The position numbers and the translations under genes are program-made. A DNA stretch of 64,000 nt from Patescibacteria group bacterium (GTDB lineage: Bacteria > Patescibacteriota > Patescibacteriia > 2-01-FULL-39-33), in NCBI GenBank assembly GCA_041649575.1, contig JBAZMW010000005.1:38734-102733 (forward strand), read 5' to 3'. Under the pieces are notes generated by a model. It saw only the letters and a list, made by a program, of their open reading frames with translations, was not told the origin of the DNA and ran no database searches. Of the stretch, positions 3,725 to 6,757 are shown one piece after another (positions within the stretch are counted from its first letter, which is position 1; every line of letters begins with the position of its first letter).

Positions 3725-6700
3725 TTATTTAGCTACCCGAAAGACTTCTTCCACGGTCGTCTCGCCGTCGACGGCTTTGAGAATGCCATCTTGGAGGACC
3801 AGGATAGCGCCATTTTTGACCGCCGCTTTTTCGATGTCGGTATTGGTGACGTCTTCCAGCTGAATTAATTTTTGCAACTCCGGCGTCATTTCCAAAACCT
3901 CATAAAGCCCGAGTCGGCCCTTGTAGCCGATATTGCCGCACTTAGAGCAACCCTTGGCCTGATAGAATTCCAGCGGCTGGGGAATTTTTATGTTGGCTTT
4001 GGGGCTGATTTGGGAGAGGATTTCTTCTACCTCTTTGAGTACTGCCGGCTCCAGTTTGGTCTTGACTTTGCAATAGGGGCAGATTTTTCTAACCAATCTT
4101 TGGCCAATAGAGCATTCGATGGAATTGGCCAGCATCTGGCGGTCGATGCCCAGGCCGACAAAACGGGGAATGGCGCCGGCGGCGCTATTGGTATGAATGG
4201 TAGAGAGAACCAGGTGGCCGGTCATGGCCGCCTCAATAGCGACTTTGGCAGTCTCCGGATCGCGGATTTCACCAATCATCATGATGTTGGGATTTTGCCG
4301 CAGGAGCGAACGCATGGCGCTGGCAAAAGTATAGCCCTGCTCGGTGTTTATCTGGGTCTGCATGATGCCCTCCAGGTGGTATTCGATCGGGTCTTCCACG
4401 GTAATAATTTTGATATCCGGACGGTTGAGTTTGTTTAAAATACTGTAGAGCGTGGTGGTTTTGCCGCTGCCAGTGGGGCCGGTGGTAATGATAATGCCCT
4501 TGGTTTTGGCCATGGATTTTTCCAATGAGGACAGGGAGTACGGCCGCATGCCCAAATCTTTAATATCCAAGGCGCTGGCCTGGCTGGAAAGCAGGCGGAT
4601 AACCACGGTCTCGCCATAGCCGCCGGAAATAATGGAAACGCGAGAATCCATTTTGGCGTCTTTTAGAAAAATAGCAAAGCGCCCGTCCCAGGCGGCTTTT
4701 TTGACGTTGGTGGGGAAGCCGGCCAGGATTTTAATATTGGAGAGCAGCGGCAAATACTGTTCTTTGGGCAAGTCGACAATATCGTGCAAGATGCCATCGA
4801 TGCGAAAACGAATTTTGACGTCGGTGTCGGTGGGCTCAATATGGATGTCGCCCGCCTCGCTCTTTAGAGCGGCGGCAATTACCAAATTGATCATCTCTTT
4901 GGTGGGGGTGTCGGCGATGGCTCTGGTGACACTGGTCAGATCTTTGGATAGTTCGGCGCCGCGGGCCAGTTCTGCCTCGCTGATTTTGATGCCACGGCCG
5001 ATGGTTTGCGAGATAACAATATCGTACAAAGCGTCGACGTAATCTAGTTTGCCGATAACACGATAAACTTCCTCTAGAGAAGTGATGCCGGACAGACATT
5101 TCAAGACGCCATCTTGCAGCATGGTGATCATGCCGCTCTCAATGGCCTGTTCCAGGATTTTGAAAGTGGGAGCGCCTTCGGAAGTCAGCTGCTTGATCTC
5201 TTCGTTCATGACAAAAATCTCATAAATGCCGACGCGGCCTTGGTAGCCGATACCGTTACAATAATCACAGCCGTCAGGTTTGGCCTGGTAGACCCTGGAC
5301 AAAACGGTGGGAATATCAACTCCTGATTTAGGGGAGATGACCGCCAAAATTTTTTCTACGGTTTCTTTTTCTGCTTCGCCAAGCTGATGCTCGATTTTGC
5401 ACCGGGGGCAGAGTTTGCGCACCAGACGCTGGCCGATAATCGCATTAATAGAGGGAACAATAAAAAAAGGTTTGACGCCCATATCTACCAACCTGGGAAT
5501 AACGCCGGCGGCATCATTGGTGTGGACGGTAGAGAGAACCAAGTGCCCGGTCAGACTGGATTGAATGGAGATTTCGGCGGTTTCCAAATCGCGGATTTCG
5601 CCAACCATAATAATATCGGGGTCTTGCCTTAGAACTGAACGCAAACCATTGGCAAAAGTATAACCTTTTTTAACATCGACTTGGCTCTGATTGATGCCTT
5701 TGAGCTGGTATTCGATGGGATCTTCCAGGGTAATTATTTTGACATCGGGCTGGTTGAGTTTGTTTAAGATGGCATAAAGCGTGGTGGTTTTGCCGCTGCC
5801 CGTGGGGCCGGCAGTCAGGAGCAGGCCGTTGGGCTTTTTAATTTCCTGTTCCAGGATTTTGTAGGCCTGGGGCATCAGCCCTAGATCCTCAAAGGACAGG
5901 ACGACCGAAGCAGACTTTAAGAGGCGCATGACCACGCTCTCGCCGTAAGCGGTGGGCAGAAAAGAACAGCGGACTTCGATTTTTTCTTTGGTCAGGAAGA
6001 TGGAAAAACGGCCGTCCTGAGGCCTGCCCTCGATGTTGATTTTTACTTTGGCCATTATTTTCAGGCGGGAGATGATTTTTTTCCAATTCTCTTTGTTGAC
6101 TGTCGCCGCTTCTTGCAAAACGCCATCGACTCGGAAGCGAACGGTCACGCCAAACTCCTCGGCTTCGATGTGGATGTCGGAAGCGTCGATTTTGATGGCG
6201 GTGGCGACAATCAGAGTGACGGTATCGCTGATATTGACTTGATTGATTTTTTCGTTGAGTTCGCGGAAATCTTTCAGCTCATTCTCAAAACGCTCCAAGT
6301 CCGCTTGTTTTATTTCGATGCCGGGGACAAATTTTCTGATTTTTGGCAGAGAGTCGTAGAGCCTGACGGCAGTTTCAAGGCTGTGTTGGGAAACCAGATA
6401 GGTAGAAACGTTGGTGTGGAATTTATCTCTCAACTCGTTTTCCAATTGTTTTATCTCGTCGTTGTAGCCGACGGCAGCCAGGCGAATATCCGAGCCATTG
6501 TTTAGAAAACAAACGACCTGCAGCTTGAGGCTGGTTTCTTTGGGCAGAGTGGTCAGGGTATCGGGAGAAATACCAAAGCCTATCAAATTAATGTAAGGCA
6601 GGCCGATGATGGCGGCTTTGTTTTCGACTTCCCGCTCTTTTTCTTTGAGAGTGATTTCCTGAATCTTTTTTTGCAACTGTCCTTGGGTGGAATCGTCGTC

Positions 6701-6757
6701 GCTAGCCGATGGTTGCTTACTGGGAAGCAGGTCTTCCAGTGAAGGGCCGATAGTCAT
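3725..6757 (-). CDS. pilB: Tandem-duplicated (fused) type IV pilus / type II secretion assembly ATPase PilB/GspE
   Basis: 1010 aa containing two complete GspE/PilB modules. Each has Walker [13 protein letters not shown], an Asp box, Walker B with the His box (GEIRD..LVLST(V/I)HTN) and a tetracysteine zinc motif (CPRCK..[29 protein letters not shown]). A GspE_N-like domain is present at the N-terminus. Confidence 0.85.
   Translation of the reverse strand: [1010 protein letters not shown]

Follow-up and report, generated by a model that had tools for sequence, protein, structure and literature searches.

A two-module PilB/GspE-family ATPase encoded beside a membrane-protein gene in Patescibacteria

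Results

The locus and the domain layout of its ATPase

The window, which is the whole 64-kb stretch of DNA that was analysed, contains a gene for a tandem ATPase of the PilB/GspE family at positions 3725–6757. The gene is a single open reading frame of 1010 codons plus a stop codon, with an ATG start and no internal stops, and its translation comprises one N1 domain followed by two N2D–CTD cores. The reading frame lies on the minus strand; the strand was not given in the first-pass annotation. An identical protein is recorded as 'MAG: GspE/PulE family protein [Patescibacteria group bacterium]'.

Upstream and on the same strand is the gene of a 341-residue, all-helical polytopic membrane protein (6877–7902, minus strand), followed by ftsH (8093–9901, minus strand), which serves as a synteny anchor. 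The gap between the membrane gene and the ATPase gene is 119 bp and holds a promoter-like site (TTGAAA-17-TATAAT, 6791–6819, minus strand) that matches the consensus at 11 of 12 positions. In view of this site and of a hairpin between the two genes, they may be transcribed separately in the window. Downstream, tsaE (3226–3696, plus strand) and tsaD (1968–3008, plus strand) converge on the ATPase gene, and a terminator-like hairpin with T-runs on both strands (3679–3708) is located between tsaE and the ATPase gene.

The N1 domain (residues 1–138; 6344–6757, minus strand) resembles the GSPII-E N-terminal or MshEN domains and is present in a single copy. Alignments to the PilB and GspE profiles begin at profile positions 30 and 13, and PF05157 (MshEN) matches homologues weakly or faintly. 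The AF2 model confidently places a folded α/β domain at residues 24–136, followed by a disordered linker at residues 139–146. The core of module 1 (residues 146–568; 5054–6322, minus strand) consists of N2D and CTD. Its Walker A motif GPTGSGKT spans residues 317–324 (nucleotides 5786–5809, minus strand). The inter-module linker (residues 569–592; 4982–5053, minus strand) contains the invariant residues G569, Y573, Y578, and G587 and a predicted helix at residues 572–585, and is homologous to the N1–N2 linker of module 1. The core of module 2 (residues 593–1010; 3728–4981, minus strand) is a second N2D–CTD unit without an N1 domain, and its Walker A motif GPTGSGKT spans residues 760–767 (nucleotides 4457–4480, minus strand). 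In modules 1 and 2, respectively, Walker A is at residues 317 and 760, the Asp box at 343 and 786, the GEIRD motif at 386 and 829, and the His box at 405 and 848; the CxxC pairs are at 450 and 497 in module 1 and at 893 and 937 in module 2.

Both modules belong to the PilB/GspE clade

PF00437 (T2SSE) matches the ATPase in two stretches, scoring 786.8 bits (E = 2.9e-237) where the cut-off is 24.9. Walker A, the atypical Walker B with the catalytic glutamate, the Asp box, and the His box of the PilT-like superfamily each occur twice and are conserved over 120 homologues. The tetracysteine zinc motif of the CTD is conserved in PilB and GspE and absent from PilT/PilU and FlaI (PMC5424180). Both modules possess it (C450, C453, C497, and C500; C893, C896, C937, and C940), and all of these cysteines are invariant. 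These motifs place the protein among the PilT-like (T2SSE) secretion ATPases, within their PilB/GspE clade, as a predicted motor with two modules, in agreement with the first-pass annotation of one 1010-residue polypeptide with two complete PilB/GspE-type units.

Assignment within the clade is less clear-cut. Against TIGR02538, the PilB equivalog (cut-off 675.65 bits), modules 1 and 2 score 482.1 and 415.3 bits, and against TIGR02533, the GspE equivalog (cut-off 630.25 bits), they score 501.2 and 440.4 bits, all below the cut-offs. The full-length protein reaches 885.3 bits on the PilB profile as the sum of its two stretches. Two sub-threshold modules thus add up to a passing score, so for proteins of about 1000 residues the automatic annotation 'type IV pilus assembly protein PilB' says more than is known. 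No T2SS genes are found nearby in the window, and a search of a defence-system library returns generic P-loop matches only.

The AF2 monomer of the tandem ATPase has a pLDDT of 87.9 and a pTM of 0.55, the relative placement of the two modules being uncertain. The best PDB matches are Geobacter PilB and Thermus PilF, with a TM-score of 0.92 per module; no solved chain in the structure search spans both modules.

The tandem gene is genuine and maintained

Protein searches return about 190 distinct full-length homologues of 992–1047 residues, drawn from NCBI, JGI, ENA, and Logan assemblies. The best 120 matches all have 992–1029 residues and 98–100% coverage. The tandem reading frame is unbroken (1002–1043 residues) in every one of 80 independent metagenome loci. 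The distance between the two Walker A motifs is 429–448 residues in 194 tandem proteins, and 440–445 residues in 186 of them. The first-pass annotation had proposed a survey of relatives for fused and split genes; the fusion is kept in all of these metagenome loci as well as in the homologous proteins. Apparent split versions in a scan of GTDB genomes (matches of about 2.4 kb) are ordinary pilB–pilT pairs. That scan, made with the family alignment, is dominated by the generic PilB peptide pattern, and the matches listed include at least two new tandem loci (L003 and L004) and at least 78 canonical PilB loci, which we use as a control set for gene context.

The halves had been described as clearly diverged, and both peptide strings quoted in support are present verbatim. 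The two modules are 48% identical in protein over 423 residues (E = 6e-143). Their DNA, offset by 1329 nucleotides or 443 codons, is alignable only in the best-conserved parts (192 nucleotides at 72% and 151 nucleotides at 80%). These identities indicate an old divergence rather than an assembly duplication, which identical halves would have suggested. MAG contigs can contain frameshifts, but this is a prior reason only, no positive sign was found, and an assembly error that merges two adjacent pilB-like genes or collapses or duplicates a repeat has a negligible probability in view of the unbroken frame of about 1005 residues across four repositories, the constant Walker A spacing, the divergence of the halves, and the conservation of the linker itself. 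The tandem ATPase is therefore a genuine gene under selective maintenance.

Both modules retain the catalytic residues, and module 2 is more derived

We mapped the residues with mechanistic roles in Geobacter PilB, namely R257, R271, R286, T327, E357, E395, T411, H413, H420, and R455 (PMC5424180), onto both modules and scored their conservation over 120 sequences. The equivalents are R250, R263, R278, T319, E349, E387, T403, H405, H412, and R447 in module 1, and R693, R706, R721, T762, E792, E830, T846, H848, H855, and R890 in module 2. They include the Asp-box glutamates (E349 and E792), the catalytic glutamates (E387 and E830), and the His-box histidines (H405/H412 and H848/H855). Each mapped residue is either invariant or conserved in at least 90% of the sequences. 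They are also kept in the deep-branching clusters P0121–P0134, the exceptions being the independent fusion P0132, and P0124 and P0128, which have a DGH variant. As read from the alignment, both modules retain all the residues predicted to be needed for ATP binding and hydrolysis, and the earlier question of whether the catalytic glutamates and arginines are intact in both halves is answered positively.

The first-pass annotation also suggested that the halves may be specialised, and the retention of conserved sites is indeed asymmetric. Of 94 canonical conserved sites, 88 are retained in module 1 and 81 in module 2, and 17 sites are conserved in both modules yet differ between them. In module 2, RQDPD has become RQNPN. 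Its departures, with the frequency of the canonical residue, are D379 to N822 (98%), S193 to G636 (94%), Q247 to W690 (97%), and P268 to S711 (99%); in addition, D381 becomes N824 and the equivalent of R231 is lost. Of the two modules, the second is more derived and has fixed substitutions of its own.

These departures from near-universal residues, together with the dead module of the independent tandem protein P0132, could be taken to mean that module 2 is a non-catalytic pseudo-ATPase with a regulatory or structural role, comparable to the α subunits in F1 or the D1 ring in certain AAA+ proteins. We regard this as improbable, since the Walker A lysine, the Asp-box glutamate, the catalytic glutamate, both histidines, and the three N2D arginines of module 2 are invariant over the 120 sequences and kept in the deep clusters as well. 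Such purifying selection on the catalytic residues of module 2 argues that hydrolysis would be retained.

A membrane-protein gene accompanies the ATPase gene

In 76 of 85 tandem loci, mostly sampled from one clade, the next gene upstream on the same strand is a homologue of the membrane gene, with a median gap of 14 bp. Such a homologue is also upstream in 5 of 5 loci of the single-module sister family and is absent from the 78 canonical PilB loci. Seven tandem loci lack it. In the divergent tandem loci L004 and L165, a DHH-family gene is upstream in its place. The main tandem clade has tyrS upstream and translin and metallophosphoesterase genes downstream, and these downstream genes are nearly as conserved as the membrane gene (translin in 72 of 85 and metallophosphoesterase in 59 of 79). 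The order ftsH–membrane gene–ATPase gene of the window recurs in L003, L166–L169, and L171.

AF2 predicts the 341-residue protein with a pLDDT of 87 and a pTM of 0.82. The window protein has no Pfam match even at E = 10. Among its homologues, PF24400 (DUF7544, cut-off 27 bits) gives 33.2 bits for P0353, 31.3 for P0325, 27.0 for P0385, and 21.4 for P0304, and the membrane partner in L168 matches DUF7544 weakly, consistent with a distant DUF7544-like character. Foldseek against the PDB finds no solved fold relative (best E = 0.3). The tandem ATPase is usually paired with this DUF7544-like membrane gene, the pairing being consistent across loci in synteny.

We also considered the membrane protein as a PilC/GspF platform (T2SSF) and rejected the assignment: it has no Pfam or NCBIfam match to that family and no PDB fold match below E = 0.3, and the PilC HMM is blank in the tandem loci.

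Probable origin of the tandem by duplication within an orphan locus

The five closest single-module relatives that we examined (P0437, P0433, P0418, P0469, and P0146) are about 50% identical to module 1. All are encoded in ftsH–membrane gene–ATPase loci, all with a homologue of the window membrane protein (HMM E from 2e-55 to 7e-70), and in 4 of 5 tsaE and tsaD converge from downstream as in the window. The single-module ATPases of the P0140 family (579–597 residues) and P0146 thus share the locus and the partner gene with the tandem and differ in having one N2D–CTD core rather than two. Their membrane partner is longer (418–438 residues, with a lysine-rich C-terminal tail) than the 341-residue partner in the window. 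No contig was recognised as common to the tandem and single-module match lists.

Synteny indicates that the tandem originated in Parcubacteria-type Patescibacteria through an in-frame tandem duplication within an 'orphan' PilB-like gene. This gene belongs to the housekeeping locus ftsH–membrane gene–ATPase gene–tsaE/tsaD and is paired there with the DUF7544-like membrane gene rather than with pilC, pilT, or pilM. In a module tree built to time the duplication relative to the single-module sister family, the distance between modules 1 and 2 and that between module 2 and the single-module proteins are both 0.89; bootstrap support is 0.28 for the monophyly of module 2 and 0.46 for grouping the module 1 sequences of the close family with P0140-like singles. 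The duplicated unit is linker–N2D–CTD with its zinc tetracysteine, with one N1 docking domain ahead of the two copies.

Three chains could close a six-module ring

In rings of PilT-like ATPases, N2D(n)–CTD(n+1) packing units are joined 'like beads on a string' (PMC5424180). Because each N2D in this family contacts the CTD of the adjoining unit, half of the packing units would be intramolecular in the fused chain. Three chains would then close one six-module ring with modules alternating 1-2-1-2-1-2, and it is reasonable to regard this trimeric ring as the most economical assembly. Such a ring would have only half of the usual six N1 domains, namely three, and would be docked on a membrane partner, for which the protein encoded next door is the prime candidate.

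Alternatively, six chains could form two coaxial or stacked hexameric rings with 12 modules, as in the type II AAA+ proteins p97 and ClpB or in KaiC. Stacking is common among tandem P-loop ATPases, and six chains would keep the six N1 domains of canonical PilB. However, the unit that was duplicated comes with an N-terminal linker of its own, whose length is constant within about three residues, and no stacking interface is known in the PilT-like ATPase family. A covalent dimer, moreover, extends the N2D(n)–CTD(n+1) packing naturally within one ring (PMC5424180). We therefore consider stacked rings unlikely and keep the trimeric ring as the working model.

Tandem loci are not linked to pilus genes

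Neither PilC nor PilT is found in the flanks of any of the 87 tandem loci, which comprise the window and a further 1.04 Mb. Canonical PilB loci of the control set contain PilC in 45 of 78 and PilT in 32 of 78 cases. The 64-kb window contains no pilC, pilM, pilT, pilin, or pilin-machinery genes. A prepilin-type gene is directly downstream of the tandem ATPase gene in 3 of the 87 loci.

It is possible, although we doubt it, that the protein is a plain type IV pilus extension motor whose partners PilC, PilM, and the pilins have their genes elsewhere, and that the adjacent membrane gene is an inherited accident of gene order. The protein has the extension-type features, an N1 domain and a tetracysteine motif in both modules (a clade feature, PMC5424180), it resembles PilB and PilF most closely in both structure and sequence, and the prepilin-type neighbours in the few loci above fit such a role. 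Type IV pilus genes occur widely among CPR genomes and are often scattered within them (PMC6744442). Against this reading, canonical CPR PilB loci still have pilC nearby in 19 of 42 cases and pilT in 14 of 42, both modules (482 and 415 bits) fall short of the curated PilB cut-off, and the membrane gene stays adjacent in two genomic contexts and in the single-module sister family. The identity as PilB proposed in the first-pass annotation, in the sense of a pilus extension motor, thus goes beyond the evidence: the linkage is to a membrane gene instead of to pilC or pilT.

Discussion

The two-module PilB-like ATPase is a variant of a well-known motor for which we found no published description. 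A covalent tandem of a PilT-like ATPase is found neither among solved structures nor in the searchable literature, where searches likewise found neither a tandem PilB/GspE nor DUF7544 described.

Canonical PilB (Geobacter metallireducens, 5TSG/5TSH; Myxococcus xanthus, 3JC8) has the same domain types, N1, N2D, and CTD with tetracysteine, is about 45% identical to each tandem module at a TM-score of 0.92, and shares all mechanistic residues. It has one N2D–CTD per chain, forms a homohexamer, and is encoded with pilT, pilC, and pilM, whereas the tandem protein has two cores and no type IV pilus neighbours. GspE/EpsE (Vibrio; 1P9R, 4KSR, and 4PHT) is of the same tetracysteine-bearing clade, and the N1 domain of GspE docks on the membrane partner GspL. 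It has a single core, however, and the tandem modules (501 and 440 bits) lie below the GspE cut-off in a window without T2SS genes. CPR bacteria also lack the secretin PilQ (PMC6744442). Thermus thermophilus PilF is a PilB-type motor enlarged through internal domain repetition, with a core structurally close to each module. PilF repeats its N-terminal GSPII domains and retains one ATPase core, and only residues 494–884 of its 913-residue chain align to a tandem core; the tandem ATPase, in contrast, repeats the ATPase core itself. In p97/NSF/ClpB, KaiC, and F1 α3β3, two related nucleotide-binding modules cooperate and divide the labour. These are other families, which form stacked rings (AAA+ and KaiC) or use separate polypeptides (F1).

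Taken together, the best explanation, which we favour with some reserve, is that a maintained two-module ATPase, which arose by duplication in an orphan locus and has two competent modules, forms a three-chain ring on its candidate membrane partner. More tentatively, and at present as a rather doubtful proposal, the tandem ATPase and the DUF7544-like protein could constitute an unrecognised two-component membrane machine of Patescibacteria, descended from type IV filament machinery but now separate from it, in which the ATPase would be an obligate C3 pseudo-hexamer with alternating, functionally distinct modules and three docking domains.

PilB/GspE motors have been studied as homohexamers, with an asymmetric C2 ATP cycle and a symmetry mismatch with the membrane platform. 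A natural fused dimer with two different, predicted-active modules constrains which ring positions can be equivalent. With the 1-2-1-2-1-2 order, opposite ring positions would always be occupied by unlike modules, and an alternating ring would halve the number of N1 docking domains. A trimeric GspF-type platform has been reported (PMC10790770). The tandem ATPase also lends itself directly to the mutagenesis of single modules, for which covalent oligomers would otherwise have to be engineered.

The consistent pairing with an uncharacterised membrane protein and the lack of pilus genes nearby suggest a so far unstudied system derived from PilB in the CPR/Patescibacteria, a lineage in which surface machines are central to the episymbiotic lifestyle. 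If the two-component machine is real, its covalent dimer would offer a natural way to test how ATP hydrolysis is coordinated in PilB-type rings and how these are matched to a platform of lower symmetry.

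The tandem ATPase is a single conserved gene

The tandem ATPase gene occupies window 3725-6757 as a single 1010-codon ORF that starts with ATG and is free of internal stops. The single ORF was recognized in the first-pass annotation, which did not give its strand (minus); the peptides quoted there are found verbatim in the translation. The proposal of one 1010-aa chain with two complete ATPase units is confirmed, all motifs being present twice: Walker A (GPTGSGKT) at aa 317 and aa 760, the Asp box at aa 343 and aa 786, GEIRD at aa 386 and aa 829, the His box at aa 405 and aa 848, and two CxxC pairs per half. 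A Pfam search finds two PF00437 (T2SSE) stretches (E 2.9e-237), and the GspE and PilB NCBIfam models each match twice along the protein. The halves are, as claimed, clearly diverged. They share 48% identity across 423 residues (E 6e-143), and only two segments of the DNA are detectably repeated (72% and 80%), at an offset of 1329 nt, equal to 443 codons. The duplication is old.

An identical protein, labelled 'GspE/PulE family protein', is recorded from a 114-kb contig of a Patescibacteria MAG; database labels on tandem proteins are generic. The best 120 matches among 5.8 billion proteins (from NCBI, JGI, ENA, and Logan) are all 992-1029 aa long and 62-76% identical, with coverage of 98-100%, and the organisms named among them are Parcubacteria group, Buchananbacteria, and Falkowbacteria. 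A Moraniibacteriota MAG (locus L004) encodes a tandem member that is 45% identical. The suggested survey of relatives for the fused form yields an unbroken single ORF, of 1002-1043 aa, in 80/80 tandem loci of a metagenome scan. Across all tandem proteins fetched (n=194), the Walker A motifs are 429-448 aa apart, and 440-445 aa apart in 186. The tandem ATPase is thus robustly a real, conserved gene. An exhaustive HMMER search of 1.84 billion representatives clustered at 50% identity gives 56,708 T2SSE relatives, and full tandems (978-1047 aa) account for only 14 representative clusters among the best 150 of them. The architecture is rare overall, yet well established in one lineage. We found no paper on a tandem PilB/GspE/T2SSE ATPase, including among CPR pilus papers and a study of type IV filament evolution.

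Domain anatomy and family membership

The chain consists of a single N1 domain (GSPII-E N/MshEN-like, aa 1-138), a disordered linker (aa 139-146), N2D-CTD module 1 (aa 146-568), a conserved, partly predicted-helical inter-module linker (aa 569-592, with G569, Y573, Y578, and G587 invariant), and N2D-CTD module 2 (aa 593-1010). The inter-module and N1-N2 linkers are homologous (17 and 16 residues compared). Therefore, the duplicated unit is linker, N2D, and CTD. In the AF2 model (mean pLDDT 87.9, pTM 0.55), the domains are confident but their mutual placement is not. Each core matches Geobacter PilB and Thermus PilF in Foldseek (TM 0.92, 44-46% identity), and no solved chain spanning both modules is found with the model, in agreement with a PDB sequence search.

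Because all motifs occur twice and the tetracysteine and the N1 domain are present, the tandem ATPase belongs to the T2SSE superfamily and the PilB/GspE clade. Naming it PilB or GspE outright, as was done at first, claims more than the scores and gene context support. Scored singly, modules 1 and 2 reach 482 and 415 bits with the PilB model (cut-off 675.65) and 501 and 440 bits with the GspE model (cut-off 630.25), so that each is below both curated cut-offs, and the expected partner genes are missing from the neighbourhood. The full-length 'pass' is the sum of two sub-cut-off stretches. We therefore reject filing the protein as a T4aP PilB or T2SS GspE equivalog.

Active sites and divergence of the modules

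Catalytic residue roles are taken from Geobacter PilB (PMC5424180), and the modules were aligned residue by residue to 5TSG (construct numbering offset +20). Geobacter R257, R271, R286, T327, E357, E395, T411, H413, H420, and R455 correspond to R250, R263, R278, T319, E349, E387, T403, H405, H412, and R447 of module 1 and to R693, R706, R721, T762, E792, E830, T846, H848, H855, and R890 of module 2. All ten are invariant or at least 90% conserved in both modules over 120 family members, which settles the earlier question of whether the catalytic Glu and Arg residues are intact in both halves. The deep clusters P0121-P0134 have them as well, except P0132, P0124, and P0128; the latter two carry DGH in place of DGR in one module or both. 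The tetracysteine, a mark of the PilB/GspE clade, is kept in both modules.

Module 2 keeps 81/94 canonical conserved sites, versus 88/94 in module 1, and is the more derived; a silent module 2 is possible but unlikely, its ten catalytic equivalents being conserved all the same. Seventeen aligned sites are conserved within each module yet differ between them, in line with the first-pass suggestion of specialised halves. Module 2 has RQNPN for RQDPD, as well as S193→G636, Q247→W690, and P268→S711. By this pattern, the halves are specialised rather than degenerate.

Genomic context and the upstream membrane protein

Among the other genes of the 64-kb window, which are aminoacyl-tRNA synthetases, rpoB/C, ftsH, tsaD/E, ruvA, and similar, none is for a type IV pilus or type II secretion system. 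With PilC and PilT HMMs built from pilB-pilT-pilC loci, we compared tandem and canonical loci. PilC, PilT, and, by a strict pattern, prepilin motifs number zero in 87 tandem loci (1.04 Mb plus the window), versus 45, 32, and 32 in 78 canonical single-module PilB loci (among matches listed), and 19, 14, and 15 in the 42 CPR loci within those 78. A plain pilus motor is nevertheless possible: a relaxed pilin pattern finds a prepilin-type gene just downstream in 3/87 tandem loci (L104 5885-6997; L151 9140-10252; L101 3504-3989, ending at the contig end), with the N-terminal cleavage/methylation signal KKAFTLIELLVVIAIIGIL, one being confirmed with TIGR02532. The L104 protein, the only one scanned, is fused to a FISUMP domain, and the L151 protein is of equal length.

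Directly upstream of the tandem ATPase lies a gene for a polytopic membrane protein of about 330 aa (6877-7902, minus strand), with a promoter-like site and a hairpin between the two genes. Such a gene is directly upstream on the same strand in 76/85 tandem loci (median gap 14 bp) and is missing from seven; two divergent loci have instead a DHH-family phosphoesterase gene of about 380 aa (L004 4863-6002, Moraniibacteriota; L165 6823-7974, a Parcubacteria GWA2_47_8-like genome). The window's membrane protein has no Pfam or NCBIfam match, and its relatives reach or approach the DUF7544 cut-off (27-33 bits versus 27), a family on which no paper was found in the literature searched. Its AF2 model is all-helical and of high confidence (pLDDT 87, pTM 0.82), with no solved structural relative in Foldseek (best E 0.3). 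A PilC-like identity was rejected.

Downstream of the tandem ATPase are a same-strand Translin-family gene (PF01997; 72/85 loci, e.g., L001 13020-14098 and L083 13056-14140) and a metallophosphoesterase gene (59/79 loci), nearly as conserved as the membrane gene in the one clade that dominates the sampled loci. Most relatives thus have a four-gene block of membrane, tandem ATPase, Translin-family, and metallophosphoesterase genes, which is absent from the window.

Elsewhere in the window, an IleRS-like class I aminoacyl-tRNA synthetase (1216 aa, 40020-43670, plus strand) has its catalytic domain split in two by a histidine-phosphatase domain (His_Phos_1, aa 520-688, E 1.9e-28). Two opposite-strand ORFs of about 390 aa each share one DNA stretch (25007-26188, plus; 25049-26200, minus), neither with a Pfam match, so that either strand may be the coding one. 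At 16608-19894 (minus), an 815-aa gene weakly matching the MMPL family shares its end with an overlapping LolA-like gene (329 aa); the LolA-like protein has an outer-membrane-lipoprotein-sorting-type fold, and the lineage is thought to be without an outer membrane. At 56581-61480 (plus), two genes without Pfam matches (238 and 319 aa) precede one whose 1067-aa product carries CarboxypepD_reg, fn3, and SdrD-B-like repeats and is a probable surface protein; a similar cluster on the related contig L170 is flanked by small HTH_17/MerR genes.

Origin of the tandem

The closest single-module relatives of module 1 are the orphan PilB-like ATPases of the P0140-like family (579-597 aa, about 50% identity) and P0146. 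The order ftsH, membrane-protein homologue (HMM E 2e-55 to 7e-70), ATPase is present in 5/5 single-module loci examined, with tsaE/tsaD convergent after the ATPase in 4/5. The window has the same arrangement: ftsH (8093-9901), membrane gene, ATPase, tsaE (3226-3696), and tsaD (1968-3008). The membrane gene and ATPase pair is the only element common to both genomic contexts of tandem genes, and the homologue is present in 0/78 canonical PilB loci (among matches listed). Therefore, on synteny, the tandem gene is a duplicated form of an orphan PilB-like gene already paired with the membrane protein. Partners of the single-module orphans (L166 8677-9984; L167 8741-9997; L168 4669-5985; L169 4681-5982) exceed the window's membrane protein by about 100 aa. 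Full translation of two of them (L166 and L167) shows this excess to be a low-complexity, Lys-rich tail at the C-terminus, missing from tandem-associated partners.

In neighbour-joining trees, the P0140-like singles, P0146, and P0152 fall together with the module 1s of the close family (bootstrap 0.46 for the grouping tested with P0140-like singles). Main-family module 2s group together, with a bootstrap of 0.28 for strict monophyly, as the single P0167 is placed among them. The branch length to outgroups is 1.03 for module 2 versus 0.87. The single-module orphans are either ancestral or have secondarily lost module 2. Three further tandem PilB-like proteins, each a singleton cluster (P0128, P0129, and P0132), have their own modules as mutual closest relatives (bootstrap 0.95-1.0) and so are independent duplications. 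P0132 has one dead module, its module 1 being without the Walker A lysine and the Asp-box glutamate.

A possible ring assembly

One tandem chain provides two complete conserved active sites, one N1 domain, and a conserved linker of fixed length. In PilB-type rings, flexible linkers join a series of N2D(n)-CTD(n+1) packing units (PMC5424180). Given this construction, the simplest assembly would be a trimer, in which three chains close a single ring of six alternating modules; half of its packing units would lie within a chain, and it would have three N1 domains. A stacked double ring is also possible. In the alternating ring, opposite positions would always be unlike modules, which would constrain any C2-type catalytic cycle. 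The adjacent membrane protein is a candidate docking partner of the ring. The tandem ATPase is informative on the mechanism of a well-studied motor family, and its synteny gives a lead to an unstudied candidate membrane partner.
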